A stretch of 64,000 nucleotides of DNA from Candidatus Staskawiczbacteria bacterium RIFCSPHIGHO2_01_FULL_39_25 (GCA_001820095.1 MHOO01000004.1:1749-65748), one strand, 5' to 3'; positions 9,091 through 55,592 are shown, counted from the stretch's first letter. The notes: generated from the sequence alone by a model not told the origin. A program made the numbers and translations.

Positions 9091-9185
9091 ACTATTTACA
9101 CTCTATCATAATTATGGTAGAGTGTTTTTAGTTCCCAGACAACTAATCCTCGTAGGCAGCTATGCCTTAAATAGCAGGAGAGAAA

Positions 9186-9650
9186 ATGAACATGAATATG
9201 TCCGATCTTTGTCTTGCGTTTGCTCGCGAGACGAATCAGGATCTCCCAGAAGCCACAGAACAACTTACTAAACTTGTCCAAAGGATCCTTTTCAGTGAGC
9301 CAGATGATGGCCAGCCTTATACAAGAGATGACCTGGAACTTGCAGAATCCTATCGTCGTCTCGTTGCCGTCAGTGAGGCTTTAACCAAGATGGCGACTGA
9401 AGAAGGCGTTAAGGGTGAAGCAAGTAAATTAGTTTTCGAACTTGGGGTGCCCCATGGTGATTGCAGCGTTTCTGGTCTCGCTCGCACCGCGATTAGTATG
9501 GGTAGCCGAATTATCATGGATAGTCCCTGGATTCGCCTAGGTCAAATTGCTGATGATCTAGAGATCGAGGAGCGTCTAGATGTTCCAGCTGAACTTGTCA
9601 AAAGATATTTTCGATCAGGAGAAAATCTTTCATCTAGGGAAACAAAGTAG
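9186..9650 (+). CDS. hypothetical protein (154 aa), higher-GC orphan
   Basis: SD AGGAGA lies 6 nt upstream. GC is visibly higher than in the core genes. A terminator follows. No recognisable motif. Confidence 0.6.
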   Translation: MNMNMSDLCLAFARETNQDLPEATEQLTKLVQRILFSEPDDGQPYTRDDLELAESYRRLVAVSEALTKMATEEGVKGEASKLVFELGVPHGDCSVSGLARTAISMGSRIIMDSPWIRLGQIADDLEIEERLDVPAELVKRYFRSGENLSSRETK

Positions 9651-9664
9651 GATTCTACTTATTC

Positions 9665-9697
9665 GCCAGTTGCGTCGAGCAGCTGGCTCTTTTTTTA
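9665..9697 (+). terminator. intrinsic terminator
   Basis: CCAGTTG-cgtcgag-CAGCTGG followed by a T-run. Confidence 0.6.
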
Positions 9698-9772
9698 TTT
9701 TTCTAAATCTGGAATATAAATATACTCTTTTTCTTCTTGAATTATGGTTCTAACGTTGTTCACGACGTCGCG
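9695..9772 (-). pseudogene. short ORF family 2, copy C1 (RDVVNNVRTIIQEEKEYIYIPDLEK), start codon replaced by TAG
   Basis: It aligns with copies at 10990..11085 and 11542..11640, with many synonymous differences. The codon preceding CGC is TAG. An internal GTG is a possible start. Confidence 0.4.
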
Positions 9773-9775
9773 CTA

Positions 9776-9803
9776 TTGACTTTTTTAGTAAATATAATAT
9801 AGT
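9776..9803 (+). promoter_or_regulatory. candidate promoter TTGACT-16-TATAGT (module R3)
   Basis: -35 at 9776..9781 and -10 at 9798..9803, immediately right of the TCGCGC core and upstream of 9863..10639. Confidence 0.35.
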
Positions 9804-9862
9804 ATAAGTTGAGTAGGCCCTTTGACAGTTAAATTCACTTTTACCAGAGAAAGGATGTGTGT

Positions 9863-10639
9863 ATGCCAGCACCAGAAAAGGTTTATTTCTTCAATTCAAG
9901 CGAACGAGGCTTGTTTGTTGAAATTTACTTTCCTAAAAGGGCGGCTTACTACGGAGCAATCTTTAATGCTCTACGCAAAGGACATGACGAAAATTTGGTC
10001 AAGGAATACTTGAGAACAAGGGTAAAAGACTTAATCAATGAATTTCAGGCTTTTCCCGATTTGTTCAAGCCAAGCCGCTACATTTCACCCAAGTTTAGCC
10101 GCACCCTGCCCTCCATGGACGAAGCTCTTGGAAGGATTGAAATGTATAAATCTCCTTTCACGGGTTGGTCAACCTACTCCGTTGACGGCGTATGGTTTGA
10201 CGAAAGTAAAACCCCAGTAGAACTCATAGAAGAAGCGACCCAAGTGGTTCGTGTGATGTTTCGCTTTGATAATTCGTTTGCCAAACAAGCAGTTGACGAA
10301 GATTGCTCTGATGTTTTGCGGGCTATTCTCTTCTGGATTATTTCTCAGCATGGTCGTCTCTATGACCATAAGGTATGGGGCAAAGAGGAGCAAGCCCAGT
10401 TTATGGCAAGGCACAAGCCTTGGCCGAAAAAGAAAGAACTCTTTGCTAAAAAACACTACGCTGACATTGCAGTTGAAACGGGCAAATGGTTAGACAATCG
10501 GGAAATATTCATCTTTTGCTACCTTGTCAGGAATTTCTGGAAAAGGGTAGTGAGAGAGGAGATGCGGGAAGATGAAATCTGGGTTACGAGCTTGTTCGAC
10601 TTGGTGTTGAACGTGGTCAAGCCCACCAAACCCGTTTAA
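9863..10639 (+). CDS. hypothetical protein (258 aa), higher-GC orphan
   Basis: SD AAAGGA lies 8 nt upstream of the ATG at 9863; the ORF track starts at 9857. Protein-like composition with no recognisable domain. Confidence 0.6.
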   Translation: MPAPEKVYFFNSSERGLFVEIYFPKRAAYYGAIFNALRKGHDENLVKEYLRTRVKDLINEFQAFPDLFKPSRYISPKFSRTLPSMDEALGRIEMYKSPFTGWSTYSVDGVWFDESKTPVELIEEATQVVRVMFRFDNSFAKQAVDEDCSDVLRAILFWIISQHGRLYDHKVWGKEEQAQFMARHKPWPKKKELFAKKHYADIAVETGKWLDNREIFIFCYLVRNFWKRVVREEMREDEIWVTSLFDLVLNVVKPTKPV

Positions 10640-10674
10640 TTGGGTTTCTAACCCTCTCTGAAAGGAGAAAAACT

Positions 10675-10899
10675 ATGCTTTCCAAAGCAACGACTCAACT
10701 AACTGAGGAAGTGTTTGGGTATTTTGGCGAGGAAGATAAGCAAAAGGCAAAAAAAGAACCTGAAGCTCTTCTAATTTCTCTGCTCTTGGTTCTCAAGAGA
10801 GAGTTGCCCGATGTCTCCTCCATGTTAAGTGATGTTGAAGAAGCTCTCTACGAAGATAATCTCAAAAAAGCACGAGAGAGGCTTGTGCAGAGCAAATAA
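10675..10899 (+). CDS. hypothetical small acidic protein (74 aa)
   Basis: SD AAAGGAG upstream. It follows 9863..10639 after 35 nt, and a terminator follows. Confidence 0.55.
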   Translation: MLSKATTQLTEEVFGYFGEEDKQKAKKEPEALLISLLLVLKRELPDVSSMLSDVEEALYEDNLKKARERLVQSK

Positions 10900-10927
10900 A
10901 AACCCTAAAAAGGGTAAAAAAACAACA

Positions 10928-10964
10928 GACCCCAGTCGTCCTTTGGACTTCTGGGGCTTTTTTA
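10928..10964 (+). terminator. intrinsic terminator
   Basis: CCCCAG-15 nt-CTGGGG followed by CTTTTTTATTT. Confidence 0.65.
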
Positions 10965-10989
10965 TTTGCAAGCGGGAAAATTAGATAAA

Positions 10990-11085
10990 TTATACATTTG
11001 TCTTTTCTGGTATCAAATCTGGGATATAAATATATTCATTTTGGCATTCAATTGCAGTTCTAACATTGTTCACGACGTCGCGCAT
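10990..11085 (-). CDS. short ORF family 2, copy C2 (31 aa, MRDVVNNVRTAIECQNEYIYIPDL...)
   Basis: ATG at 11085..11083 inside the TCGCGCAT core. An AAGGTGA SD-like sequence lies within the R1 hairpin 10 nt upstream. Synonymous pattern against C1 and C3. Confidence 0.4.
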   Translation of the reverse strand: MRDVVNNVRTAIECQNEYIYIPDLIPEKTNV

Positions 11086-11090
11086 TCTTT

Positions 11091-11210: not shown

Positions 11211-11549
11211 ATGGCAAAATTAGAAAGTAAAAAATTTGATTCTCCAGATGAAACTGTGAACATAGGAAGAGGTAAGGTTGAGGTTATTAGTCTAGGCGGT
11301 TTTAAGGTGAGAAAACTTACTTTGCAACCTGGTTGGAGATGGTCGGAAGATGTAAAACCGATGGCTAAGACTGAAAGTTGCAAAATACCACATCTTAATA
11401 TTCACATTTCTGGTAAACTGGGTGTAAAAATGGATGATGGTACCGAACAAGAATTTGGCTCAGGGGACGTTGCATTATTACCACCAGGCCACGATGGGTG
11501 GGTTGTTGGGAATGAACCAGCGATAATAATAGAACAAACCCCTACATAA
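11211..11549 (+). CDS. cupin domain protein
   Basis: Small beta-barrel pattern with G..W..H and GDVALLPPGHDGWVVGNEP, typical of single-domain cupins. Confidence 0.7.
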   Translation: MAKLESKKFDSPDETVNIGRGKVEVISLGGFKVRKLTLQPGWRWSEDVKPMAKTESCKIPHLNIHISGKLGVKMDDGTEQEFGSGDVALLPPGHDGWVVGNEPAIIIEQTPT

Positions 11550-11640
11550 AATTCAAAATCCCGAAAGTTAAATCTGGCATATAAATACACTCATTCTGTT
11601 GGTGTATAATATTTCTAACGTTGTTGACGACGTCGCGCAT
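11542..11640 (-). CDS. short ORF family 2, copy C3 (32 aa, MRDVVNNVRNIIHQQNECIYMPDL...)
   Basis: ATG at 11640..11638 at the junction with element M copy 2. It overlaps the cupin 3' end by 8 nt. Confidence 0.35.
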   Translation of the reverse strand: MRDVVNNVRNIIHQQNECIYMPDLTFGILNFM

Positions 11641-11778
11641 ATGGAAAAAGACTGTCTACAAGACAGTCTTTTTTCATATATCTGATTGGGATTTGAAGGG
11701 CGCCGAGTTCCTTTGTTGACATTGTGTGAGGCGCCCAGGCCGCGAGTCGAAGCGAGCGGAAATCCCCTCGCTCGCGCA
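11640..11778. mobile_element. 139-nt element M, copy 2, bounded by TCGCGCA (11633..11639 and 11772..11778)
   Basis: Same length as 1379..1517. The central 5 nt of the first hairpin are reverse-complemented (TACAA here, TTGTA in copy 1). Confidence 0.6.
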
Positions 11779-11788: not shown

Positions 11789-11852
11789 AACAGATCCTTC
11801 GGGGTCTGTTTTGTTTTGTAAATCTGGCATTTTGCTCTGAATTTGCTATAAT
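11789..11852 (+). promoter_or_regulatory. module R2: terminator hairpin (11789..11815), 12-nt partial L2 repeat (11819..11830), extended -10 TGcTATAAT (11844..11852)
   Basis: CAGATCC-ttcg-GGGTCTG plus a T-run. TAAATCTGGCAT repeats 11569..11580. The TGn+TATAAT lies upstream of 11990..12550. Confidence 0.4.
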
Positions 11853-11989
11853 AAAGCCGACCGAACGGCCTTAGCTGGAAATTGCCCAAGATCCCCAAAT
11901 TTGTTCCTGAAATCTTGATCTGGACCGAAGAGGTGCGTTGGTTGCACTTTTTATCCTGAACTTTAACAAACTTTATGTGAGGGACGCCC

Positions 11990-12550
11990 ATGATTTATGC
12001 CTTAACCCATGGATTTCGCGCTTCTGGCTATAATCCATCCCATACGAACGACGGGTTCGCGCAAATTTCCTACCTGCAAGACATTATTTTTACCCTTGAT
12101 GCTTTTATGGAATCGGTAAATATCAGGATGATTGTAACCGGAGAGGCAGACAAATGCATGGAAATTTCTCATATGCTCAAACCCCGCTTTCGCCATGTCA
12201 GTATAGTGTGCGACCCATTATTGGGGCCGATAGAATCAATTAGTTCCGAAGATGGAAAAGGAGTAGTAGTGACAAGGACAGGACAATTGCTTCCTCGCAG
12301 TCACTACAAAACGCTGTCTGAACATAAGGGGGCGCAGCGTTTTGCCTGGCAGATCGTCAAACAGTACTATGGTGATGAACCAAGGGGCGATAAAATCTTC
12401 TGCACCGGCAAACAGTTTATGGTTGCCCTAGGGTTTAAAGCATTCAAAATGGCTTCTATTTATAAGTTGAATCCGTATGCAAAGACCATAGAAACTATCT
12501 TAGAGGCGCATGTATTGCTGGCCGTACCCAAGATCTACCATGCTAAATGA
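11990..12550 (+). CDS. hypothetical protein (186 aa), higher-GC orphan
   Basis: SD GAGGGA lies 7 nt upstream and a terminator follows. No confident domain; an N-terminal LTHG is only faintly reminiscent of histidine phosphatases. Confidence 0.55.
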   Translation: MIYALTHGFRASGYNPSHTNDGFAQISYLQDIIFTLDAFMESVNIRMIVTGEADKCMEISHMLKPRFRHVSIVCDPLLGPIESISSEDGKGVVVTRTGQLLPRSHYKTLSEHKGAQRFAWQIVKQYYGDEPRGDKIFCTGKQFMVALGFKAFKMASIYKLNPYAKTIETILEAHVLLAVPKIYHAK

Positions 12551-12578
12551 AGCTCGGCGATTCCACCGGGCTTTTTTA
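12551..12578 (+). terminator. intrinsic terminator
   Basis: GCTCGG-cgattcca-CCGGGC followed by TTTTTTATTTT. Confidence 0.6.
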
Positions 12579-12585
12579 TTTTCCC

Positions 12586-12870
12586 AGCACTCATCCCTGA
12601 GGACGAGAGCTCCTGCTTTGCAGGAAGCTCTTCGCGTCCCAACCGCTTGCGGCAGGGATGATTGCTGTCCGTAGCCCCGACTACGGTCGGGGCGAAGGAG
12701 AAAACATAAGTCCATCAATCTTGCGAAAGCTACGTTAAATCTTTCGCAAGATTGATACGGTACTCCGACGAAGTCGGAGTATCCCGCGGCTTTGCCGCGG
12801 GGACTTCTATTGTAAGTATTCTCTTTGCGCAACGTCCGAAATAACATCATGGAGTAGCTTTGTGTAAACT
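12586..12870. other. GC-rich hairpin-dense noncoding segment (candidate structured RNA or REP-like cluster)
   Basis: An 8-bp closing helix CATCCCTG/CAGGGATG is followed by four consecutive perfect hairpins with stems of 7, 16, 9 and 8 bp. Two of them share CCGAC..GTCGG. No credible ORF. Confidence 0.4.
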
Positions 12871-12902
12871 AAAAGCCGCTTTTCTTCGGAAAAGCGGCTT
12901 TT
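12871..12902. terminator. bidirectional terminator-like hairpin
   Basis: AAAAGCCGCTTTTC-ttcg-GAAAAGCGGCTTTT has A-runs and T-runs on both sides. Confidence 0.6.
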
Positions 12903-12943
12903 GAAAACCAGCTATCCATATGTCTATATATTACCGCAGGGTC

Positions 12944-12971
12944 TTGACAAGATTTTATGATATGCTATAAT
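12944..12971 (+). promoter_or_regulatory. near-consensus sigma70-type promoter TTGACA-16-TGcTATAAT
   Basis: -35 at 12944..12949 and -10 at 12966..12971 with a TG at -15/-14. It precedes a leader of about 240 nt before the ATG at 13213. Confidence 0.6.
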
Positions 12972-13212: not shown

Positions 13213-13458
13213 ATGGCTACGACAATGGTTCGGTCGAGTTGGACGGGCACCAGGGGCATTGTGGATCTCGCTTTGCCCGATGACTGGGACGAAGCCTTCA
13301 TGGAAGTCAAGGAGAAGTCCTTGGATTCCCACGAGGAATTCTCGTCTCGGTTCGTGGCGACCGTCTGGGACTGGGCGAAGGAGCCGGACAATCTTGGCAG
13401 TGATGCCAAGAAGATGAACATTGTCGAATTGGCCGAGTACTGGTATGAATTCGGCTAA
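13213..13458 (+). CDS. hypothetical acidic protein (81 aa), high-GC orphan
   Basis: SD AAGGAG upstream and protein-like sequence, chosen over the R/S/P-rich overlapping frames. Terminator at 13529..13558. Confidence 0.55.
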   Translation: MATTMVRSSWTGTRGIVDLALPDDWDEAFMEVKEKSLDSHEEFSSRFVATVWDWAKEPDNLGSDAKKMNIVELAEYWYEFG

Positions 13459-13528: not shown

Positions 13529-13558
13529 AAGGAGAGGTGTTGCAACCTCTCCTTTTTA
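13529..13558 (+). terminator. intrinsic terminator
   Basis: AAGGAGAGGT-gttgca-ACCTCTCCTT followed by TTTT. Confidence 0.7.
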
Positions 13559-14411: not shown

Positions 14412-14437
14412 TGTATACTAATAATTGATTGTGGCCA

Positions 14438-14711
14438 TAGGAGTGCGGGATTTGAACACAATCAAGTTTAGAAGCCAAAAAATGAAATAATTTCAAGGCT
14501 TGCCGAAGGAGGCGTAGCCCATGCGCTACGCCGAGGAGGTATAACGCAGAAATTATTCATTTTTTGGCTTCCCGTAGGGCGGGCGAATTAAGCCAAGTTT
14601 CTTCGTTGCTCGTCGAGAACGTACCGCAGAGGGTACGTTCTCTTCCTCACGCCTTGAATCTTGGCTTAATTCGCTCCGCTAAATTGATTGTATTCGAATC
14701 CCGCACTCCTA
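14438..14711. repeat. nested palindromic element: 28-bp outer stem enclosing three further long hairpins
   Basis: Outer arms 14438..14465 / 14684..14711. Inner stems 14472..14494 / 14549..14570, 14585..14597 / 14660..14672 and 14615..14625 / 14632..14642. Confidence 0.7.
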
Positions 14712-14765
14712 GGGGTGTGGGACGTGAACAGAATCAAGCTGGTTCGTGTTCGACCCCCACACCCC
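14712..14765. repeat. 54-nt 'empty' hairpin paralogous to the outer stem of 14438..14711
   Basis: GGGACGTGAACAGAATCAAG here matches GGGATTTGAACACAATCAAG (14446..14465). Closing helix GGGGTGTGGG / CCCACACCCC. Confidence 0.6.
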
Positions 14766-14823
14766 TTAACTTCGCCCATCGGCAAGAGGTCTAATAGTTT
14801 CGGTGGGTGAAGTTTATCGTACC

Positions 14824-16031: not shown

Positions 16032-16065
16032 TTGACTTGCCTCGCAGAATTTATTAATCTTTAAT

Positions 16066-16240
16066 TACCTTGAATTACGAAATGCACTATTAAAAAACAG
16101 TTTTCGGGTCTTTTTCCCAAATTCGGGTCGAAAATCCGCAATAATTCCAAAACGTAGCTTGCTACGTTTTGGAATTCTATCACATTTTCGCCTTCCAAAT
16201 TTAGAAAAAATACCGCGAAAGCATTTCGTAATCCAAGGTA
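16066..16240. mobile_element. MITE-like palindromic element, copy M2 (175 bp)
   Basis: 20-bp TIRs TACCTTGAATTACGAAATGC / GCATTTCGTAATCCAAGGTA. The internal second-order palindrome carries the central hairpin CCAAAACGTAGC..GCTACGTTTTGG. Confidence 0.7.
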
Positions 16241-16279
16241 AATAGTTCCTTTTTGTACCTTAACAAATGGAGTTGTAGT

Positions 16280-24217: not shown

Positions 24218-24370
24218 TTTAAAAACCCAAATTCAAAATTTCAAATTAGAATCTAGAATCTGGTATCTTGAATCTAGAATAGAATAAAAGAATATTGAAT
24301 GCAAAACTTCACATTCTAAACTCAACATTCAATTCAAGCTACTAGATACTAAATTCAAAATTCATCGTTT
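24218..24370. repeat. word-type spacer built from AAATTCAAAAT / GAATCTAGAAT words
   Basis: Low-complexity, roughly inverted arrangement. Similar word sets occur at 13081..13120 and 31059..31200. Confidence 0.6.
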
Positions 24371-24796
24371 ATGGCTAAAGAAATAAAAGCAGTGGTAAAA
24401 ATTCAAATTCAGGCAGGCAAAGCAAATCCGGCGCCTCCCGTAGGGCCGGCGTTGGCCCAGCATGGCTTGAATATTGCCGAATTCTGCCAAAAATTCAACG
24501 AGGCGACCAAGGATAAAATCGGCTTTGTTATTCCGGCAGAGGTGACTATTTATAAAGATAGAAGTTACACATTCAAACTAAAAACTCCGTTGGCTTCAGA
24601 ATTATTGAAAAAAGCCGCGGGCATTGAAAAGGGTTCAGGCGAGCCGAATAAAAAAACCGTAGGAAAAGTTACCAAAACCCAGTTAAAAGAAATTGCAGAA
24701 AAGAAAATGGCGGATTTAAATACGACGGATGTTGAACAAGCCATGAAAATCATCGCCGGAACAGCAAAAAATATGGGCATCGAAGTAAAAAACTAG
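24371..24796 (+). CDS. rplK: 50S ribosomal protein L11
   Basis: [35 protein letters not shown] is canonical L11. Confidence 0.97.
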
Positions 24797-24814
24797 GTTT
24801 AAGCCTAGTTTTTT
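24787..24814 (+). terminator. terminator overlapping the rplK stop
   Basis: AAAAACTAGG-tttaag-CCTAGTTTTT followed by T. Confidence 0.6.
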
Positions 24815-24829
24815 ATTATGCCCATATTT

Positions 24830-25006
24830 TTTACAAAGGGGGTCGGGGAAATTGGGTATTTCCCCGTGAAGGAAACTACGAGCGAAGCGAGCATCAGAAA
24901 CCGTGGGTTTCTGAGGAGCGAAGCGACAAAAATTTCGGGGATAGAAATAAAAAACTAATATCAAGAAAGCCGCCAGGCACAATACTGCGCCTGGCGGCTT
25001 TTGTTT
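24830..25006 (+). ncRNA. candidate small structured transcript between two terminators
   Basis: Hairpins CGGGGAAAT-tgggt-ATTTCCCCG and TCAGAAACC-gtg-GGTTTCTGA, the second flanked by the direct repeat GAGCGAAGCGA. It ends in the strong terminator 24966..25006. Confidence 0.3.
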
Positions 25007-25055
25007 GCAATTTATTTTTAAACAAGTAAAATAGATGAATTAAATAGAAAAAAAT

Positions 25056-25664
25056 ATGTCAAAAGATGATGAAAAAGTACTGGTAGTTTCTGCAGATATT
25101 ATTTTTAAAGAAGGAAGATGGCAGGGACTGAAACAGGATAATTTAGATCATTATTTAGATCTTATACAAAATAATTATCAATTTAAAAGAAGGGGAGATG
25201 TTGAACAAGACCCCTCCTGGCAGCAGATCATTCCTTATATTGTTTTTAATTACCAAGATAAATACTTTCTTTATAAATACCTGCCAAAAGCAGGCGAACA
25301 GCGGTTGGTGGATACCTATCAGATTGGGGTAGGTGGTCATATTAATGAGATTGATACGAATGGTGCAAGCAATGTGTTGGAAGAAGGAATGATGCGCGAA
25401 TGGTCTGAAGAAGTTGAATATAAAGGGAATGTTTTAGAAAAAAAATTCATTGGCTTGTTGAATGACGATTCACGGCCAGTGGAAGCAGTACACTTGGGGT
25501 TAGTGTATAATTTTGTTGGCGACAGCCCAGAAATCTCCATAAAAGAAACGGAAAAAATGCAAGGCGAGCTAGTACTATTACAGGATATTGGTGAAAAAAT
25601 TAAAAAGAATGATGGAATTTGGATTAAATTAGTGCATAGAGACTATTTAAGCCGATTAAAATGA
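25056..25664 (+). CDS. hypothetical protein with a degenerate Nudix-box-like motif, first gene of the dTMP operon
   Basis: GGHI..(17)..REWSEEVEY resembles REUxEE. A 4-nt ATGA overlap joins it to tmk. Confidence 0.35.
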   Translation: MSKDDEKVLVVSADIIFKEGRWQGLKQDNLDHYLDLIQNNYQFKRRGDVEQDPSWQQIIPYIVFNYQDKYFLYKYLPKAGEQRLVDTYQIGVGGHINEIDTNGASNVLEEGMMREWSEEVEYKGNVLEKKFIGLLNDDSRPVEAVHLGLVYNFVGDSPEISIKETEKMQGELVLLQDIGEKIKKNDGIWIKLVHRDYLSRLK

Positions 25665-27612: not shown

Positions 27613-27643
27613 CGCCTGCACCTTAACAACAAGGAGATAACCT

Positions 27644-37890: not shown

Positions 37891-38017
37891 AAATTATCCT
37901 ATGAATTACGAATCTTAGCGAATTACGAATACGTTTTAAAATTTTGTACTTTCATTTTATAGGTTAATGAAAATCAAAACAAGTGTTGCTAAAATTTGTG
38001 AGTATGATATTGTTTAG

Positions 38018-38097: not shown

Positions 38098-38120
38098 TTA
38101 GTTCTTTTAGGAGGCAAGCT

Positions 38121-42200: not shown

Positions 42201-43359
42201 GGTCAGGTTTAACGAATCAGATAGGACTACCACATTTGTCTCTGCCAGCCAGCTTACTGCTTCTATTCCGTCATCCGACCTTGAAACTGCAGGAACGTAT
42301 CCTATTACGGTATTTAATCCAACTCCTGCCGGAGGAATATCTAATTCCCAAAACTTCACGGTTGTTCCGGGGGCAAATCCGCTGCCCACTACCATCAGCA
42401 TTTCTCCAAATTCGGCAACCGTAGGCGATCCTGGTTTTACCCTTACGGTCAATGGCACTAATTTTATATCTACGTCTACCATTTACTTTGAAAGTCTAGG
42501 GCTGGCAACCACCTATATTTCTTCAACCCAGTTAACCACATTCATATCATCAACCCCCGGCGCGGGAACTTATTCTGTAACCGTGGTAAACCCCGCGCCC
42601 GGCGGAGGCACCTCTAATGCCCAAACATTTACCGTCAACGATGCTGATACCGAAGGCCCGACGATAAGCGATTTAGCGGTGTCCAGCGATTATTGCCCCA
42701 TTGTGCCCGCTACGGGAATTGCTTACATATCTTGGACGTATAATAATAGCAATGGCAGATACGAAAATCAATTCCAAATGCAAATAGATGATGATCCTGA
42801 TTTCAGTTCTCCTGAAGTCAATAGAACATTTTCTAATCTTTCCAATCCTCCGGGGAGCGTAAACCAGCAATCGGTTTTTATTGTTACGGGGTTTGAACCA
42901 GATTCCTTAGTTTATGGTTACACCTATTACGGGCGCGCAAAGGTATGGGAAACTGATCCTGATACCGGAGGCCCCGGCGCCGATTCTGGTTGGGTATATA
43001 ATACCGGATCTGCTCCGGGCTCGCCCTATGCTACGCCGCCGCATCCTGGCCCATATGCTTCATTTACTTTCTCTCCAAGCAATCCGGCTCCGGGCAATGC
43101 CGTATCATTTGATAATAATTCCACGTGCTATGATTTTAGCGATCCTGTTGATTGCCAATCATATCTTTGGGATTTTGGTGATGGCGGTTCAAGTACTCAA
43201 GAAAATCCTACTCACGTCTATAATACCAATGGATCGTTTAATGTGGATTTAACCGCTTCTGATGAATTGGGGAGCTGCCAAACCAATAAAACGGTTCCGG
43301 TAAGCGCTTCAAGCAATAAGAAATTGCCTCAATTCAAAGAAGTGTCTCCATTGGAATAG
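39202..43359 (+). CDS. giant secreted/surface protein: signal peptide, 9 IPT/TIG-like repeats, YVTN-type beta-propeller, C-terminal PKD-like domain
   Basis: FTLTVNGTNF...TTTYVSATQLTA...NPTPGGGTSN.QTFTV occurs nine times. (S/A)PDGNY(V/L)Y(V/I) blades span 39540..40440. WDFGDGGSS..HVY..G.F.V lies near the C-terminus. Confidence 0.85.
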   Translation: MLNSPFKKFLFVSIISVLAFFNADLAYAACTAVPTITSISPSSKNAGDATFTLTVNGTNFLNSSKVRFNGSDKTTTYVSATQLTAAIPSSDVSSGGSYSVSVFNQPSCRVVTDKEPWSIIISQDSNYLYVVNNGDNTLQKFNTSDLNQTVPHVTTDNYPQSVAVSHDGKYIYIVNETNETLQKFDAANLNLLASATTGKSPRSVAIAPDGNYVYVANYTNKKVQQFYTPNLSLSESINADGNPTAITISPDGNYLYIASSNKNNIQKFSIPNLNLLQTTALLDDYVRSLVVAPDGNYVYAVDYFNLKKFNATNLSLVKSSSGGSQSDPGYSISVSPDGNYLYTINPITPSINKFSVSDLGLILSNNLASPYISPHSIAISADGNFIYVLFLSKGVTNNHLLIKIDTSTLAFESDGGSSNAQTFTVNNPLPTTTSISPTSKTAGEPDFTLTLNGTNFISTSVIYLGSLGLTTTYVSATQLTASLPVPQEGTYSITVVNPTPGGGTSNGQTFTVNAADNPAPTTTSISPVSKNVGDTAFTLTVNGTNFIDASVIKFNDSNRTTTYINSTKIRTTIPVSDLATAGTFTITVFNPTPGGGTSNGQTLTVNNPVPTTTSISPSSKIIGDPGFTLTVNGTKFVSTSTIYFDSLGLATTYVSATQLTADISTLPALGTYSITVVNPAPGGGTSNAQTFTVNNPLPTTTSISPTSKNAGDTSFTLTVNGTNFISTSKVRFSGSDRTTTYVSATQLTATIPASDLATGGTFNITVFNPTPGGGTSNGQTFTVNNPVPTTTSISPNSATQNDPSFTLTVNGTNFVAASKVRFNGSDRTTTYISATQLTATIPASDLTSAGTFTITVFNLTPGGGTSNGQTFTVVEANPTAPTTTSISPTSKTTGSPAFTLTVNGTGFIPSSKVQFNLSDRTTTFVSPVQLTAAIPASDLTTGGIYRITVDNGIGGLSNAQSFFVNNPVPVTINILPSSAFVNGPSFVLTVNGSNFVSSSKVRFNESDRTTTFVSASQLTASIPSSDLETAGTYPITVFNPTPAGGISNSQNFTVVPGANPLPTTISISPNSATVGDPGFTLTVNGTNFISTSTIYFESLGLATTYISSTQLTTFISSTPGAGTYSVTVVNPAPGGGTSNAQTFTVNDADTEGPTISDLAVSSDYCPIVPATGIAYISWTYNNSNGRYENQFQMQIDDDPDFSSPEVNRTFSNLSNPPGSVNQQSVFIVTGFEPDSLVYGYTYYGRAKVWETDPDTGGPGADSGWVYNTGSAPGSPYATPPHPGPYASFTFSPSNPAPGNAVSFDNNSTCYDFSDPVDCQSYLWDFGDGGSSTQENPTHVYNTNGSFNVDLTASDELGSCQTNKTVPVSASSNKKLPQFKEVSPLE

Positions 43360-43472: not shown

Positions 43473-43543
43473 CAATTGACCGTTGACTATTGACAATGGA
43501 TTTTTAAGTCAAATGTCAAATGTCGCATGTCAAATGTCAGATA
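43473..43543. repeat. word-type spacer: CAATTGAC words then the GTCAAAT heptamer tandem
   Basis: GTCAAAT GTCAAAT GTCGCAT GTCAAAT GTCAGAT at 43506..43540. Confidence 0.7.
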
Positions 43544-43828
43544 ATGGCAGTTCCAAGACATAAACACACAAGGTCAAGCGTAGGACAGCGCAGGATGCAT
43601 ATTTTTATCAAGCCGGCTTCTTTAACCGTCTGCAAAAAATGCAATAGGGCAGTCAGGCCTCACACGGTATGCCGCAACTGCGGATATTATAAAGGCCAGG
43701 AATTTATCAATGTGCTAGGCAAGCTTACAAAAAAGGAGAAAAAGCTAAGGGAAAAAGAGATGCAAAAGGCGGAAAAAGAGCAGAAAAAAACTGCGCCAGC
43801 AACCATGGAAGAACTCTCTAAAAAATAA
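43544..43828 (+). CDS. rpmF: 50S ribosomal protein L32 with a K/E-rich C-terminal extension
   Basis: MAVPRHKHTRSSVGQRR and C..C....PH..C..CG. ATG at 43544 preferred. Confidence 0.9.
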   Translation: MAVPRHKHTRSSVGQRRMHIFIKPASLTVCKKCNRAVRPHTVCRNCGYYKGQEFINVLGKLTKKEKKLREKEMQKAEKEQKKTAPATMEELSKK

Positions 43829-43909
43829 CAATTGACAATTAACCATTGACAATTGACAACGATATCGTTTTTTGTCAAATGTCAAATGTCAATGGTCAAA
43901 TGTTGAAGC
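43829..43909. repeat. word-type spacer forming an imperfect long hairpin with a terminator centre
   Basis: ATTGACA-type words, then AACGATATCGTT plus a T-run, then GTCAAAT heptamers. The same design recurs at 50337..50418. Confidence 0.7.
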
Positions 43910-44335
43910 ATGGCTTCACGGCACTTATCACGTTCAATCGTCATGCAATCGCTTTATGAGTGGGACTTTTACGGCAAGAAAGAAAACTCTTTACAGGCAA
44001 TTACTGAAAGGAATATTAGGGATTTCGGCCCTGGACTAGAGGATGTAAAATTTGTCTATGAACTAATTGAGGGCATTGTAAAGCATTTAAAAGAGATTGA
44101 TAATATCATTGAAAAGGCGGCTCCCGAATGGCCAATTTCCCAGATTCCCTTGATTGATAGAAATGTGTTGCGGATAGGCCTGTACGAACTTTTATATAGC
44201 AACAAAGAAGAAGTTCCGCCCAAGGTTGCCATCAATGAAGCAATTGAGTTGGCAAAAAATTTTTCAGGGCAAACTTCTGGAAAATTTGTGAATGGAGTGC
44301 TGGGAACCGTGTTTAAACAACTAGAAAACAAATAG
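43910..44335 (+). CDS. nusB: transcription antitermination factor NusB
   Basis: [29 protein letters not shown] and NEAIELAK. Confidence 0.9.
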
Positions 44336-45603: not shown

Positions 45604-45634
45604 CAAGAACTGCTTAGAGGTAAATTTTTGCATA

Positions 45635-45664
45635 TTGACAAAGGCTATGCTTTTTTGATAAGAT
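45635..45664 (+). promoter_or_regulatory. promoter TTGACA-18-TGaTAAGAT
   Basis: -35 at 45635..45640, and an extended -10 with TG at 45656..45657 and TAAGAT at 45659..45664. Confidence 0.5.
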
Positions 45665-45670
45665 ACGGTT

Positions 45671-46090
45671 AGATAGCTCATTTAATTAAGAGACAGAAAA
45701 AAGTAGCTCTGTTAATTGATCTCCAGAAAATTGTTCATCTCTAAGGTGGACAGTTTTCTGGAGACAGTTAATAGAGTACCTTGGCGCGGCATATGACCTC
45801 GTGCCAGGGTGCGCAAGATACTCTCTTGTGCTGTATAGGGGACGTTCCTCCTCTTTGACGGAAGGATCGTCTTAAAGAGAAGCGCGCGCTTAAGGTGTCC
45901 TCTCCTGTGAGGAGCTTTAGAGGCAAGCTAGCTTCTAAGGATTCGGATATCCTTCAAAGCCGCCTTGGCGACTCTTGTCGCATCCCCCTAAAATCTCTAT
46001 TACTGTCTCCTTTGTTCTTCTTCATTTCTCCGCTCCGGCGGGCTTTATTCATAGGCTGCAACTACTCTGTTGTGGCCTATATTTTTATAT
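45671..46090 (+). ncRNA. candidate structured ncRNA of about 420 nt, family unknown
   Basis: It runs from the promoter to the terminator (GGCTGCAAC-tactct-GTTGTGGCC plus TATATTTTT, 46054..46090). At least 8 hairpins. Visibly GC-richer than the flanks. Only junk-like ORFs. Confidence 0.5.
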
Positions 46091-46141
46091 TAAGGACATG
46101 CAAACAGATCTATTGATTATGCATAATTTGTGTTATATAAT

Positions 46142-46317
46142 ATCTTTGAATTACGAAATGCCCATTTAAAACGTTTTTTCGGGTCTTTTCCCAGAATTTG
46201 GGCTATAAATTCGCTATAATTTTCAGGCGGACGCGTTGCGTAAGCCTGAAAATTCTATCAAATTTCTATCTCCAAATTCTGGAAAAATACCGCGAAAGCA
46301 TTTCGTAAATCAAAGAT
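46142..46317. mobile_element. MITE-like palindromic element, copy M4 (176 bp)
   Basis: TIRs ATCTTTGAATTACGAAATGC / GCATTTCGTAAATCAAAGAT. Core AAATTCGCTATAATTTT-CAGGCGGACGCGTTGCGTAAGCCTG-AAAATTCTATCAAATTT. Confidence 0.7.
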
Positions 46318-46421
46318 ATTTATTTGATTTTAAGAACAAGTGAATTGGGCCCCCACACCATAAATTCAAAAAATTTTGGTGTAGGGGTGAAGTAGAACGC
46401 TGGAGTGTACATAACTTTGGT

Positions 46422-46632
46422 GGGCTCATAGTTCAGTGGTAGAACGCTGTCTTGCACAGCTTTTATGGGGGGCCCGTAGTTCAGTGGTAGAACGCTGTCC
46501 TGATAAGACAGAGGTCAAAGGTCCGATTCCTTTCGGGCCCACCATAAAAGCTGGAAAATTAACATTTAGAAAAATAAACAGAAAATTTTCCTAAGACAGA
46601 GGTCGAAGGTCCGATTCCTTCTGAGCCCACCA
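46422..46632 (+). tRNA. interrupted tRNA: 5' half 46422..46456 and 3' half 46593..46629 plus CCA, with a 136-nt intervening sequence in the anticodon loop (anticodon GCA/Cys most parsimonious, ambiguous)
   Basis: Acceptor GGGCTCA/TGAGCCC is 7/7 paired. The D arm and anticodon stem CTGTC/GACAG match the inner tRNA. T arm GAAGG-TCCGATT-CCTTC. The leader/trailer helix CATAACTTTGGT/ACCAAAGTTATG is 12 bp. Confidence 0.55.
46470..46544 (+). tRNA. tRNA-Ile(GAU)-like, 72 nt plus encoded CCA, nested inside the interrupted tRNA
   Basis: GGGCCCG-TA-GTTC-AGTGGTA-GAAC-G-CTGTC-CTGATAA-GACAG-AGGTC-AAAGG-TCCGATT-CCTTT-CGGGCCC-A-CCA. The T loop is atypical (C at position 55). Confidence 0.7.
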
Positions 46633-50336: not shown

Positions 50337-50418
50337 CATTTTACAATTAACAATTGACAATTAACCGTACGTCAAATAGGTCAAATGTTAAAGGTCAAAT
50401 GTCAAATGTTGCATAGTT
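50337..50418. repeat. word-type spacer: CAATTGACAATT words then GTCAAAT heptamers
   Basis: TTACAATTAACAATTGACAATTAACC ... GTCAAATAGGTCAAATGTTAAAGGTCAAATGTCAAATG. Confidence 0.7.
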
Positions 50419-50976
50419 ATGTGGTTAAGGTATATTATTATAACTTTACTTTTTTTTATTGCGGCGCTTATGCAAGCAAGCTTCGTGCCTTACTTTGGCA
50501 TTAAGGGGATAATGCCAAATGTTGTCTTTGCCCTCTTTTTTCTTTTGATTTTTTTGAAGAAACCATATGCATATTATTATCAGCAGAGTAATTATTTGCT
50601 CTATAATAGCCTGCTAAGCTATGAGGGGCTTTTCATAGTCATAGTAGCCGGATTTTTTTTAGATATTTTCTCCTCTTCTTACTTTGGGTTATCGTTGCTT
50701 TCATTATTAATGGTATATTTTATCGTCAAAACACTAGTATATTTTCTAAGAGAGCAGCAAAACCGGTATATGGTTTTCTATTTTCTACTGATATTTCCAT
50801 GCGCTTTTTTTGTCCATACTATTTTTTTGCAATCGTTTTCCGGTCCGATTACCTTCAACAGTATTCTTTTGTTTGAATTTTTGTACACCCTCGTAGTTGC
50901 CTGCACAGTTTTTTATGGGTATAAAGGGTACATTGAGTTAATCAAACAAGATAGGCAGCTTAGACTATTTGATTAA
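50419..50976 (+). CDS. mreD: MreD-like polytopic membrane protein
   Basis: Five TM helices, positioned between mreC and the PBP2 gene. Sequence itself uninformative. Confidence 0.55.
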   Translation: MWLRYIIITLLFFIAALMQASFVPYFGIKGIMPNVVFALFFLLIFLKKPYAYYYQQSNYLLYNSLLSYEGLFIVIVAGFFLDIFSSSYFGLSLLSLLMVYFIVKTLVYFLREQQNRYMVFYFLLIFPCAFFVHTIFLQSFSGPITFNSILLFEFLYTLVVACTVFYGYKGYIELIKQDRQLRLFD

Positions 50977-52921: not shown

Positions 52922-52990
52922 TATTAAATTTTCAATTTTCAATTTACAATTTTCAATCAATTTCTAAATATCTAAATTTTCAAATAAAAA
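52922..52990. repeat. word-type spacer (TTTTCAATTT words)
   Basis: AAATTTTCAATTTTCAATTTACAATTTTCAATCAATTTCTAAATATCTAAATTTTCAAAT. Confidence 0.6.
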
Positions 52991-53035
52991 AAGAGAGCGG
53001 ATGGGTCTCCGCTCTTATTGGGATTTTACGCTCGG

Positions 53036-53245
53036 TTAGTCCTGCATTTGCAGGTAGTTGTTAAAGAACTTGTTTTTCTTCAAGGAATTCCTTCTGCATC
53101 GCTTGAACCTCTTGAGGTGCAAGTTTTCGGTAGGCAGACCGTAATACTCTAGAAACCATTTGGCTTTCATGCGTGCTTGCCGGACATCTCTGCCCTGCGA
53201 AAGAAAAGGCACTCCGCTTCCTTCAATGTAGCATTCAAACAGCAT
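53036..53245 (-). CDS. hypothetical small protein (69 aa), higher-GC orphan
   Basis: Strong SD AAAGGAGG 7 nt upstream of ATG 53245. A minus-strand terminator lies at about 52990..53025. Candidate promoter TTGACA-17-TGaTATCCT upstream. Confidence 0.5.
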   Translation of the reverse strand: MLFECYIEGSGVPFLSQGRDVRQARMKAKWFLEYYGLPTENLHLKRFKRCRRNSLKKNKFFNNYLQMQD

Positions 53246-53360
53246 GGTAGTCCTCCTTTTGAAAATGTCGTGAAACACTAAGTAGAGGATATCACTTATT
53301 TTAGGTTATGTCAATGATTGTGAGATTAGGCTAATTTTGATATTATTACGCAATACTCGT

Positions 53361-54821
53361 ATGAGCAGTATTGAAGAAATAAAAAAAGTAAGAATGGAGA
53401 AATTAAAATCCCTGCAGGATGCAGGGCTTTTGGCGTACCCAGCGAAAACAAAAAGGACACATTCTATTATAGAGGCGTTGAAGAGTTTCAATAAATTGGC
53501 GAAGTCAGGCGCAGAATTGTGTCTGGCTGGCAGGATTATGGCACTACGCGGGCATGGAGGCGCTACGTTTTTAGATGTTGATGATGGTTCAGGAAAAATA
53601 CAAGGCCTTATCAAAGAGGACAAAGTGGGGGAAAAGGGCTACCAGTTTTTTATAAATCATTTTGATATCGGTGATTTTATTGAAATTAAAGGAGTGTTGC
53701 TAAAAACCAAACGGGGAGAGCAGACGGTTGAAGCAACCGATTATGCTATGCTTGCAAAATCATTACTACCGTTGCCAGAAAAATGGCACGGCCTTCAAGA
53801 TGAAGAAGAAAAGTTACGCAAGCGCTACTTGGATATTTTGTTTAACCCGGAAGTAAAAGAAACCATAAAAAAGAGGGCGGTTTTTTGGAACAGCATGCGC
53901 GAGTTTTTAATAGAAAGGGGATTCTTGGAGGTGGAAACTCCGGTATTGGAAGTGACTACCGGCGGGGCTGATGCCAGGCCGTTCATTACCCATCACAATG
54001 CTCTGGATTTGGATGTGTACTTGAGAATTTCTATTGGAGAGTTGTGGCAGAAAAGGCTCATGGTTGCCGGCTTTGAAAAAACGTTTGAAATAGGCCGGGT
54101 TTTTAGGAATGAAGGCATGGATGCCGAACACCTGCAAGATTACACTGCCATGGAATTTTACTGGGCTTATGCTGATTATGAAAAGGGTATGGAATTTGTG
54201 GAAGAAATGTATAAATATGTCATTAAGAAAACCTTTGGAACCTTAAAATTCAAAATAAAAGGCTTTGATGTTGATTTTGGCAAAAAATGGGAAAAGTATG
54301 ATTATTGCTCAACGATCAGCAAATATACTAAAGTAAATATTCTTGAAGCCAGCCTGCCTGAAATGGAAAAAGTGCTAAATAAACTGGGTGTTATCTATGA
54401 CAAAAAGGGGTTTAATATCACCCGCGCCATTGATAATCTCTGGAAGTATTGCAGGAAAAATATTGGAGGCCCCGGATTTTTAATTAATGTACCCGTATTT
54501 ATGGAACCATTGGCAAAACGCATGGAAAAGAATCCAAAACTGGTGCAGCGTTTTCAGGTGATTATCGGCGGATCTGAAAATGGCAAAGGATTTAGCGAAC
54601 TTAATGATCCCATTGACCAGGCTGAACGGTTTGCCGAACAGCAGAAACTGCGGGAAACAGGGGACCAGGAAGCCCAGATGTTTGACCACGATTTTGTGGA
54701 AGCTTTAGAATACGGCATGCCGCCAACCTGCGGTTTTGGCGTTTCAGAAAGGTTATTCAGCTTTCTCATGGATAAACCGGCTCGGGAGACCCAGATTTTT
54801 CCACTGATGAAACCGAAGTAA
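53361..54821 (+). CDS. lysS: lysine--tRNA ligase (class II)
   Basis: OB-fold N-domain and class II motifs (FLEVETPVL; FEIGRVFRNEG; GFGVSERL). Confidence 0.95.
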   Translation: MSSIEEIKKVRMEKLKSLQDAGLLAYPAKTKRTHSIIEALKSFNKLAKSGAELCLAGRIMALRGHGGATFLDVDDGSGKIQGLIKEDKVGEKGYQFFINHFDIGDFIEIKGVLLKTKRGEQTVEATDYAMLAKSLLPLPEKWHGLQDEEEKLRKRYLDILFNPEVKETIKKRAVFWNSMREFLIERGFLEVETPVLEVTTGGADARPFITHHNALDLDVYLRISIGELWQKRLMVAGFEKTFEIGRVFRNEGMDAEHLQDYTAMEFYWAYADYEKGMEFVEEMYKYVIKKTFGTLKFKIKGFDVDFGKKWEKYDYCSTISKYTKVNILEASLPEMEKVLNKLGVIYDKKGFNITRAIDNLWKYCRKNIGGPGFLINVPVFMEPLAKRMEKNPKLVQRFQVIIGGSENGKGFSELNDPIDQAERFAEQQKLRETGDQEAQMFDHDFVEALEYGMPPTCGFGVSERLFSFLMDKPARETQIFPLMKPK

Positions 54822-55047
54822 TCCACGAATGTCAACAAATTTTAAAACGAATGGCAACGAATCCGTCGAAAGGCGGATTTTTACTTTAATAAAAATGTAG
54901 TATCATTTTAAAAGCTTTTAAAAAGACGCTATATAATATTTTAGTAAATTTTATCACTGACGGATTTTTTGATTGCTCTGAGTTTGCTGAAGAGTAAAAG
55001 AAAAGCCCCTTGATATAATCTCAGGGCGACCCATCGAGAACTAACTC

Positions 55048-55485
55048 TCAATGGCCATGGTTTAGCGGCAGGGTGAATTCAACGCTAACGAGCGCTTGAG
55101 CAATCTCCTCGATTTTCTCGGGAGAAGTCCAATACATCCTGGAGTTTTTTCTCCCAAACTCCACCACCTGGGAGATGCCGAAGCTCCTTCGCACACACTC
55201 ACGAACGAAGTCTAGGGATCGAACTCCCTTGTTGAGACATGTCTGTTCTCGCTCAAAGAGTTCACAGAACTTTTGAGCGGTACAAAGACGCTCATCGGCC
55301 ATCTCCGATTCTTGCATGGCCCAGTTGAAAATGGAAACTGCAGCAAACCTTCGATGGTCGTTTGCAGCCCACCCTCTTACCGATGCCTTTGCCTGAAGTT
55401 GGCTAAGATAATCTCCGTAGTCATCCCGAAACTCTTCGGGAATAACCGACGGATCAAAGAATTGGCTGATTTGGTTCTCATTCAT
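55048..55485 (-). CDS. hypothetical protein (145 aa), high-GC orphan
   Basis: SD AAGGAGG upstream, a consensus promoter at 55593..55621, and a terminator after the stop. No recognisable domain. Confidence 0.6.
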   Translation of the reverse strand: MNENQISQFFDPSVIPEEFRDDYGDYLSQLQAKASVRGWAANDHRRFAAVSIFNWAMQESEMADERLCTAQKFCELFEREQTCLNKGVRSLDFVRECVRRSFGISQVVEFGRKNSRMYWTSPEKIEEIAQALVSVEFTLPLNHGH

Positions 55486-55592
55486 GGGAACCTCCTTTTA
55501 TCGGAATTACGGCTTCCGAGTGGCCGCTAGGGAAATCCTTAAGTGAAAAGTGCTGTTTGGGGTAAGACCCGTTGTTTTACCCCTATTTCTTA

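Follow-up and report, generated by a model that had tools for sequence, protein, structure and literature searches.

Why would a few genes of a bacterial genome be preceded by a Shine-Dalgarno (SD) motif when the housekeeping genes around them do without one? This question is raised by a 64,000-nucleotide stretch of Candidatus Staskawiczbacteria bacterium RIFCSPHIGHO2_01_FULL_39_25 (MHOO01000004.1:1749-65748; hereafter the window), which originates from Rifle aquifer groundwater and belongs to the Parcubacteria/candidate phyla radiation (CPR; Patescibacteria). The original prediction had divided its genes into AT-rich core genes without SD and GC-richer orphans with SD, and had read the orphans as recent acquisitions from a donor with different expression signals. 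We found that the SD half of this observation is real and generalizes to related loci. We also consider it probable that two initiation regimes exist side by side in this genome, the SD-led class being a long-standing, lineage-wide pool of accessory genes with turnover.

SD-led modules and SD-less core genes

SD motifs were scored at positions -25 to -4 of 59 curated window starts as the free energy (dG) of the duplex with ACCUCCUUA, and the set compared with Pfam annotation comprised 59 window genes and 8 genes just beyond the window. A purine-rich GGAGG-type motif lying 4-12 nt 5' of the start was present in nine genes, at a spacing of 5-9 nt and with dG values of -6.1 to -12.3. Eight of them are the orphans listed in the original prediction, all of which indeed carry a purine-rich SD-like motif at 5-9 nt: 9186 (-7.4), 9863 (-6.3), 10675 (-8.7), 11990 (-6.1), 13213 (-8.7), 27644 (-8.5) and, on the minus strand, 53036 (start at 53245, -11.6) and 55048 (start at 55485, -12.3). 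The ninth, 38121 (TAGGAGG, -10.2), had not been listed. The core genes, whose identities were confirmed by Pfam tables and by our own Pfam scans of the window proteins, are devoid of SD as claimed, since 0/53 Pfam-annotated genes reached a dG of -6. Conversely, 10/10 genes at dG <= -6 were Pfam-less, compared to 4/57 of the others (Fisher p = 4e-9), although one of the ten, 14803, has a doubtful GTG start. Searches of the SD-led orphans against PHROGs, PADLOC and NCBIfam returned no family match, with the exception of the DnaJ-type zinc finger of 27644. The SD-less core genes are found between 17120 and 63303 and include, by Pfam, an ABC transporter gene, pheS, gyrB, secE, nusG, rplK, tmk, thyA, folA, gatB, miaA, thrS, dnaE, rnhB, rpmF, nusB, rnc, rpsP, mreC, PBP2, lysS, serS, a Mur ligase gene, ftsQ and others.

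The SD-less genes carry start signals of their own. The A-rich AAA(T/C)TATG context attributed to the core genes was recovered as AAATT-ATG at 6/6 of the cited starts. In eight first-in-operon genes (3148, 15548, 19884, 28693, 38431, 39202, 47111 and 55663), among them gatB, pheS and rnhB, an extended -10 element (TGnTAnAAT) ends up upstream of the ATG at a distance of 6-9 nt, most often 6 nt; the same arrangement was seen in L021 and L025 (L-numbers denote related loci and contigs fetched for comparison). An element at this distance is a predicted signature of leaderless mRNAs. Genes internal to operons overlap the preceding gene and have no SD. Over the 48 SD-less window genes, A accounts for 65% of the residues at -3 and -6 and 56% at -9 and -14, T for 56% at -1, and G for 4-19%, a Kozak-like context. 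Related loci, with 384 and 527 genes scored, showed this trend as well.

Each SD-led gene is a self-contained promoter-leader-SD-open reading frame (ORF)-terminator unit. The near-consensus sigma70 promoters and own terminators ascribed to the orphans were recovered, with perfect promoters at 12944-12971(+) and 55621-55593(-). Module 9186(+) consists of a promoter-like site (9095-9123), a leader of ~55 nt, AGGAGA at 9176-9181, a coding sequence for 154 aa (9186-9650) and a terminator (9665-9687). It is followed by the two-gene module 9863+10675 (9776-10962, +), which has a promoter at 9776-9803, coding sequences for 258 aa (9863-10639, SD AAAGGA) and 74 aa (10675-10899, SD AAAGGAG), and a hairpin terminator at ~10930-10960. 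Module 11990(+) combines a promoter with a TG-extended TATAAT (11824-11852), a ~130-nt leader, the SD GAGGGA, a 186-aa coding sequence (11990-12550) and a terminator (12549-12574); neither its product nor that of 9186 matched any family library searched. Downstream, the perfect TTGACA-16-TATAAT promoter at 12944-12971 precedes a long leader, the SD AAGGAG, the 81-aa coding sequence of 13213 (13213-13458, +) and a terminator (13529-13554). The 27644 module (27590-28690, +) occupies the folA|gatB gap, with an extended -10 (TGGTAAAGT), a ~40-nt leader holding a CCTTAACA box, the SD AAGGAG, a 329-aa coding sequence (27644-28633) and then a terminator, while 38121 (38100-38360, +), between dnaE and rnhB, encodes a small membrane protein of 79 aa. 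On the minus strand, 53036 lies in the PBP2|lysS gap (promoter TTGACA-17-TATCCT with TG at 53314-53286, SD AAAGGAGG, 69-aa coding sequence at 53245-53036, terminator at 53015-52994), and 55048 (55048-55621) lies between lysS and a CTP-transferase gene, with the perfect promoter, a ~100-nt leader, the SD AAGGAGG and a 145-aa coding sequence (55485-55048). An additional module is found just outside the window, in the dnaB|cysS gap, where an uncalled 67-aa ORF is accompanied by TTGACA-17-TACAAT, AGGAGG and a terminator.

Many SD-led leaders also contain a CCTTAAC(A)/CTTTGAC box 3-18 nt 5' of the SD, as at 27612-27640, 9171-9181, 11956-11985 and 16256-16272 in the window and in L021, L027, L028, L029, L075, L037, L050, L023 and L218:13175. 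In L075 the box reads TTAACTTTA and is identical to the phage T7 gene-10 epsilon enhancer. In addition, TAAC, AACAA and CAACA are two- to eightfold more frequent in SD-led leaders than in SD-less genes (p = 1e-3 to 1e-4, uncorrected).

Conservation, composition and turnover of the modules

The product of 27644 has at least 149 full-length homologues, 30-50% identical and all from Patescibacteria, which share the motifs IPCWYELS, CPGDACGLHP, HNVDxPxQQLTLLAGLAAL and two copies of CxxCxGxGK. A conserved DnaJ-like CxxCxGxG zinc finger is embedded in an otherwise unmatched fold: the AlphaFold (AF2) model scores 88 for predicted local distance difference (pLDDT) and 0.86 for predicted template modeling (pTM), and its comparison to the PDB and BFVD gave no neighbor at E < 0.001, the DnaJ-type zinc finger being the only part matched, so that the fold pointed to no function. 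In four other Staskawiczbacteria species, the homologue is located immediately 5' of gatB (L021, L026 and L028) or in the same neighborhood (L027), with folA upstream in L021 and L028. Across these species the homologues are only 42-50% identical, compared to 78% for GatB, 83% for DnaE and 89-94% for NusG and L11. The shared slot, together with this divergence relative to the flanking core proteins, indicates that 27644 was inherited vertically and evolves fast, rather than having been inserted recently. In distant lineages the homologue is again found in the gyrB-nusG-rplK-gatB neighborhood, directly 3' of rplK (L037), after gyrB (L075) or in the thrS-dnaE gap (L045). The synonymous composition of 27644 resembles that of the core genes, and its alignment shows a conserved leader.

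A scan of the genome collection recovered the 27644 family at 65 loci, including Staskawicz-, Portnoy-, Nealson-, Wolfe-, Yanofsky-, Campbell-, Jorgensen-, Davies- and Andersenbacteria. A GGAGG-type SD precedes the family gene in ~42 of 47 lineages but only ~8% of the neighboring genes. Among the 40 loci with enough genes, the family gene reached dG <= -8 in 27 and <= -6 in 34, the median for neighbors at <= -8 being ~8%. Of the apparent exceptions, two begin with TTG and have strong SDs, and a third is leaderless. In L021, L023 and L025, strong SDs were found on the 27644 homologue and on several Pfam-less neighbors, and none on GroEL, DnaG, RpoD, SecG, NusG or L11. The 9863 family is similarly large, with 210 representative-cluster homologues. 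In L223 and L091 its member is SD-led and GC-richer than its SD-less neighbors (prfA, ftsEX), and in L223 and L222 a small gene lies 3' of it, which in L223 is SD-led and weakly similar to 10675. We infer that selection maintains the SD in both families. A fourU-like hairpin sequestering the SD in the 27644 leader was also considered and rejected, as the helix has only 4 bp (-0.9 kcal/mol) and shows no covariation.

The compositional half of the original observation holds as an average, but the difference comes from protein make-up, and the distribution is not bimodal. The SD-led genes have a median GC of 0.444, compared to 0.379 (p = 0.003), which supports the "higher GC" of the orphans as a tendency, although 38121 is SD-led at 0.379. 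GC content is continuous, and the SD-less genes 8474, 15548, 19096, gyrB and the ABC transporter gene are equally GC-rich. At four-fold sites the SD-led genes hardly differ from the others (0.477 versus 0.460), and the GC excess therefore stems from amino acid usage, that is, from codon positions 1 and 2; the SD-led proteins contain fewer I, N and K and more R, C, W, E and M. Likewise, SD-led genes are GC-richer than their neighbors in 26/31 related loci (p = 2e-4), with an excess at codon positions 1 and 2 (Wilcoxon 3e-5) and none at four-fold sites (31 + 23 loci). This indicates that the SD-led genes are by and large residents whose proteins are composed differently. Synonymous sites are deviant only in 13213, 53036 and 55048. 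Of these, 13213 is the clearest compositional outlier of the window (total GC 0.545; four-fold-site GC 0.82, p = 3e-5 versus core genes), and 53036 has a GC3 of 0.57 at two-fold sites, compared to 0.30 in core genes. Synonymous sites are not deviant in 9186, whose GC is 0.46 but only 0.35 at four-fold sites, nor in 10675, 11990, 27644 and 38121.

Strains of the same species all carry every module, and the Staskawiczbacteria RIFCSPLOWO2_01_FULL contigs (GCA_001822005.1 / GCA_001820275.1) encode proteins identical to those of the window. Turnover is seen relative to L126, in which the gene order of the window, mreC-mreD-PBP2-lysS-serS-hydrolase-Mur ligase, is conserved and the proteins are 41-52% identical. 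Its PBP2|lysS gap measures 113 nt, its lysS directly abuts serS, and no gene is present at either lysS-flanking slot; 53036, 55048 and the two following genes are therefore insertions relative to L126. The proposal that three orphans are single-gene insertions into operon gaps described the layout correctly in all three cases, but the folA|gatB arrangement is ancient. In L133, SD-led small ORFs lie between the 16S gene and greA, with no counterpart in 20 GreA-syntenic loci. In the Nealsonbacteria contig L203, the dnaB|cysS gap holds an SD-led gene for an ArfB-like GGQ protein (L203:7935-8273(-)) with a perfect SD (GAAGGAGG). In L182, a ThyX-like gene (L182:11497-12264(-)), also with a perfect SD (AAAGGAGG), replaces thyA-folA between tmk and gatB. 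The 16S genes on both contigs lack the CCUCC anti-SD. Since the ThyX-like and ArfB-like genes are SD-led, the class also includes recognizable enzymes.

Could the motifs be mere accidents, that is, purine runs before spurious ORFs annotated in GC-richer non-coding or RNA-coding DNA? We regard this as highly improbable. It is true that 10-15% of control ATGs reach dG -6, that the start of 14803 is questionable, and that the GC-rich structured segments of the island at 8.4-13.6 kb have no Rfam match. However, the full-length homologues of 27644 and 9863 number in the hundreds and are subject to purifying selection, the fold of 27644 is confident, and SD presence is associated with the lack of a Pfam match at the significance given above. 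Furthermore, motif, spacing, promoter and terminator coincide at nine loci, and SD 5-mers are most frequent at -15 to -11 among 700 and 502 independent genes. As for the original explanation, in which all SD orphans are recent horizontal acquisitions from a phage, a plasmid or the host bacterium of an episymbiont and the SD is baggage from the donor, we consider it unlikely as a universal account, and for 27644 it is already refuted. It is plausible for 13213, 53036 and 55048 in view of their deviant synonymous GC, the last of these having a single homologue anywhere (from a Nealsonbacterium, 55% identity). The empty lysS-flanking slots of L126, the unique SD-led insertions beside the L133 16S gene and the ThyX-like gene of L182 at the thyA-folA position of the window also speak for it, as does the location of five modules in an island beside restriction-modification and PDC-S46 defence genes, where repeats and fragments of tRNA 3' ends also occur. 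It fails for 27644 and for 9863+10675, which belong to large, old, CPR-only families, 27644 being syntenic over four or five species at saturating divergence with leader and SD conserved, and it is at odds with SD-led four-fold-site GC equal to that of the neighbors in the window and in the 31 + 23 loci. A phage or host-bacterium donor found no support, as we saw no phage match and no homologue in a non-CPR, host-like organism. Searches of the orphans against PHROGs, viral contigs and BFVD were negative (the BFVD fold match concerns the zinc finger only), as were those against NCBIfam and, apart from a local zinc-finger match, those against PADLOC for a defence function. No prophage context was found in the window, where the lone PHROG match is the helix-turn-helix (HTH) protein 8474.

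Under the reading that we favor, with two regimes and an accessory pool, housekeeping genes would be initiated without SD. Operon-first genes would often be leaderless, with the extended -10 at 6-9 nt before the ATG, and the leaders of other genes would be unstructured and poor in G, carrying A at -3 and -6 and U at -1; internal genes would overlap their predecessor. The second regime would concern a minority of genes, ~10-15% in the window and ~5-8% in related genomes, organized as self-contained monocistronic or two-gene modules, each with its own sigma70-type promoter, a 35-230-nt leader, a GGAGG-type SD at 5-9 nt and its own terminator. Their products would be short, Patescibacteria-restricted and fast-evolving, with an amino acid make-up that raises GC at codon positions 1 and 2 and not at synonymous sites. 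The modules occupy the intervals that separate core operons, or are grouped in the defence/mobile island at 8.4-13.6 kb. Old residents of the pool would be the 27644 family and the pair 9863+10675, whereas 13213, 53036 and 55048 would be recent arrivals from it. The anatomy of the modules, the association of SD with Pfam-less genes, the conservation and the retention of the SD in particular genes are the parts of this reading that the data show directly.

Several points weigh against this reading. By count alone the excess over chance is modest (dG <= -8 in 6/59 genes versus 3.4-3.9% of control ATGs, p ~0.02), and the three weakest motifs, those of 9186, 9863 and 11990, are individually at chance level because of the share of control ATGs that reach -6. 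Starts in loci outside the window follow a simple first-ATG rule, and "Pfam-less" is only a proxy for "accessory". Finally, in a lineage truly devoid of the anti-SD, no reader is known for an SD under selection, which favors many of the motifs being decaying relics.

The surroundings of the modules contain further elements. The defence island at 1-8.3 kb comprises DUF2130, a zeta-like gene, a RadC-Dcm fusion, R.HinP1I, Vsr and a full-length PADLOC PDC-S46, with GmrSD and an ImmA-like pair just upstream. The PDC-S46 gene (6107-8263), directly 3' of the RadC-Dcm fusion, R.HinP1I and Vsr, encodes a 718-aa SMC_N-like ATPase that matches this candidate defence family end to end (E = 2.8e-238); its strain variant in L215 has 734 aa. 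Between the SD-led modules lie 70-nt repeats, 81-83% identical, at 9704-9781, 10985-11086 and 11530-11641 (-), with related copies at 1372-1552 and 8857-8896. They represent the 5' ends of short ORFs (26-34 aa) on the minus strand, whose consensus is MRDVVNNVR(T/N)xIxxxxE(Y/C)IY(I/M)PDL. Each ORF is preceded by a hairpin and GAAAGA-ATG and converges with the plus-strand gene at the terminator of the latter. A copy of 146 nt links 1372-1517 to 11633-11778 at 92% identity. An integron cassette array at 8.8-12.6 kb, in which the repeats would separate the ORFs, was rejected: the window and its flanks encode no recombinase, attC sites are absent, and the modules have their own promoters. Between the 11990 terminator and the 12944 promoter, 12575-12940 has a GC content of ~0.5 and several strong hairpins (for example 12782-12802, 8 GC pairs), with no ORF and no Rfam match. 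Inverted tRNA 3'-end-like fragments (TTCGAATCCCGCACTCCTA) at 14435-14468(-) and 14681-14714(+) bracket a 212-nt GC-rich segment, and a minihelix, GGGGTGTGGG...CCCACACCCC, adjoins the pair (14713-14766). The fragments could derive from att sites left behind when an element integrated into a tRNA gene; over 14435-14766 there is no integrase nearby and no Rfam or ARAGORN match.

Other repeats are intergenic: GAATTACGAAATGC in 8 copies (16055-16236, 38008-38115, 46131-46313 and 62420-62471), GTCAAATGTCAAATG (43502-43548, 43868-43914 and 50374-50420), CCAGATTCAAGATTC (13077, 24243-24365 and 31069-31203), and the TTCGCGCGAA palindrome, which flanks the ArsR-type HTH_5 gene 56168 on both sides (56118-56169 and 56438-56491) and is probably its operator. 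Neither GAATTACGAAATGC nor TTCGCGCGAA was found in the other loci, not from Staskawicz strains, that had been fetched to that point. Most direct-repeat families stem from internal repeats of a TIG/beta-propeller/PKD surface protein of 1385 aa (39202-43359). Another surface protein, SpaA-like and of giant size (>2903 aa), is encoded ~11 kb past the right end of the window (L218:13741-21104), where the 83-kb assemblies break.

The 16S rRNA tail and the reader of the motif

According to Tsurumaki et al. (2022, RNA 28:1041, PMC9297842), only 48% of Parcubacteria 16S genes contain the CCUCCU motif. The paper also reports that Parcubacteria lacking uL1 have mostly lost the 16S anti-SD and suggests that SD helices do not form. 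The searched text of that paper mentions neither mRNA-side motifs, nor an SD-led minority class, nor its conservation in particular families. In the window (24796-25056, +), rplK has no rplA after it, the next gene, 25056, being Pfam-less, and rplA was absent from all the rplK-bearing loci checked (window, L021, L027, L028, L037, L045 and L182). The lack of rplA after rplK probably places the window organism among the uL1-lacking Parcubacteria. L182 shows the same rplK-tmk adjacency, and its contig also carries a 16S gene without anti-SD.

When metagenomes were scanned for 16S ends that lack CC after GGATCA, at least 120 contigs were returned, all of CPR type, whose 3' ends read GGAUCA + AUUAAA or UUUUUUU in place of CCUCCUUA. 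Among the contigs listed (L092-L211), the tails after GGAUCA were AUUAAA (33), UUUUUU (22), AUUAAU (7) and others, and recurrent 16S neighbors were a single-domain response regulator (at least 10 loci) or greA (at least 20 loci). Five of the anti-SD-less contigs are syntenic with the window or its immediate flanks, namely L126, L180 (16S directly after rpsP), L182 (order rplK-tmk-X-gatB-16S), L203 and L112. In L076, a complete 16S gene, which harbors a group I intron, ends with GGAUCAAUUAAACU and has no anti-SD; 3.7 kb away, a 27644 family member starts with AAGGGAGG-4nt-ATG among neighbors without SD. Judging from these relatives, the window organism likely lacks the 16S CCUCC anti-SD as well. 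Its own 16S gene was found neither in the window, nor within 10 kb of either end, nor in the 10 kb past dnaX, and motif links between the repeats of this genome and 16S contigs gave nothing.

On the anti-SD-less contigs, ~5% of the genes still have correctly spaced SD motifs. Over their 502 genes, SD-like 5-mers peak at -15 to -11 (52 versus ~13 per bin), and strong SDs occur at ~3 times the control frequency. Substitutes for the anti-SD were sought on the rRNA side and rejected. CCTCCT occurs at a random rate and in no common context within 3 kb downstream of 121 anti-SD-less tails, no conserved CCUCC is present in the last 600 nt of 78 anti-SD-less 16S genes, and the AU-rich tails pair with leaders of their own contig no better than swapped tails do (-1.27 versus -1.25 kcal/mol). 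A rival account would be that the window organism has kept CCUCC (16S tail as GGAUCACCUCCUUA) and that its SD-led genes are leadered mRNAs read canonically, as in GeneMarkS-2 group C or X genomes or in Bacteroidetes, in which an SD persists in a few percent of the genes; this would be known biology. Dual start models within one genome are well documented (PMC6028130), about 48% of the Parcubacteria retain the motif (PMC9297842), the SD spacing is canonical, and the 16S evidence comes from relatives and not from this genome. We nevertheless find this account doubtful, given that the 16S genes of the five syntenic contigs are all without CCUCC, even though these contigs were retrieved by searching for anti-SD-less tails, and that the L076 16S gene, equally without it, lies so close to an SD-led family member.

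We tentatively put forward a further possibility, which goes beyond the coexistence of two regimes and which we hold with low confidence: in uL1-lacking Parcubacteria, probably including the window organism, CCUCC was lost, yet resident families keep a spaced GGAGG, often with a CCTTAAC-like box 5' of it, under purifying selection. If so, GGAGG would be read by a protein, by another RNA segment or by a specialized route for leadered mRNAs, or it would have been reused as a regulatory element of the 5' untranslated region. SDs kept in anti-SD-less lineages would then constitute a natural experiment on roles of the SD beyond pairing with the 16S tail, showing how initiation signals decay or persist after loss of the anti-SD. 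In practical terms, gene starts of CPR genomes should be annotated with dual models. SD-led modules tend to be missed, and several assemblies left both 53036 and the 67-aa ORF of the dnaB|cysS gap uncalled. The combination of an SD with a promoter and a terminator of the gene's own offers an inexpensive marker of the accessory, fast-evolving pool, which probably holds functions of the episymbiont lifestyle, and the two widespread CPR-only families, 27644 with its confident unmatched fold and the 9863+10675 pair, are targets for function discovery.

At 45628-46060 of the window, a promoter-like TTGACA-18-TAAGAT is followed by ~370 nt of GC-rich, ORF-poor sequence and a terminator hairpin; the 16S gene of L180 is located at this position, after rpsP. 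The GC-rich non-coding stretches, this one included, gave no credible match in Rfam. The tRNA-Ile(GAU) gene (46470-46544) is nested between 5'-half-like (46418-46454) and 3'-half-like (46592-46632) copies of a near-identical tRNA, which would jointly form an acceptor stem, and 9-nt inverted repeats (CAGCTTTTA / TAAAAGCTG) flank the intact gene. In L126, L180 and L182, tRNA-Ile is followed by tRNA-Ala(UGC) near the 16S gene, whereas tRNA-Ala is missing at the window tRNA-Ile.

Comparison with known systems

The closest known frameworks are dual-signal genomes (GeneMarkS-2 groups C and X) and the SD-independent initiation of Bacteroidetes. In groups C and X, operon-first genes are leaderless, with a Pribnow box 6-8 nt from the start, and coexist with genes whose SD lies at the same distance (Lomsadze et al. 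2018, PMC6028130); in group X the signals are weak, yet an SD precedes some of the genes (PMC6028130). The window genome resembles group C in that a Pribnow box lies 6-9 nt before operon-first starts, within the ~6-10 nt expected of that class. However, the SD genes of group C are ordinary leadered or internal-operon genes, whereas here internal-operon and ribosomal-protein genes are without SD, and the SD is confined to lineage-specific, stand-alone modules. As to Bacteroidetes, ~3% of the genes of Bacteroides ovatus (group B) have an SD (PMC6028130). The likeness to the window lies in an upstream context that is rich in A, notably at -3 and -6, and poor in G, and in the rarity of the SD, which is strong in a few special genes. 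A Kozak-like A at -3/-6 was reportedly described in Bacteroidetes by Baez et al. in 2019, and their SD-led rpsU is said to be read once the anti-SD is unmasked (Jha in 2021, McNutt in 2023). Unlike in Bacteroidetes, where the 16S anti-SD is retained but sequestered by ribosomal proteins, the relatives of this organism are without CCUCC, and the SD-led set consists of unannotated accessory proteins and not of an autoregulatory ribosomal-protein gene. With the uL1-lacking Parcubacteria (PMC9297842), the window organism shares the clade and the absence of rplA after rplK. The modules also resemble horizontally transferred genes and phage morons, being stand-alone units between resident genes with unannotated products, a patchy distribution and, in 13213, 53036 and 55048, deviant composition. 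They differ from morons in having no prophage context and no phage homologues, and most of them have a native synonymous composition, two belonging to vertically inherited CPR-wide families. The new element, compared to these systems, would be an SD confined to self-contained accessory modules and conserved family by family in a lineage that probably lacks the anti-SD.

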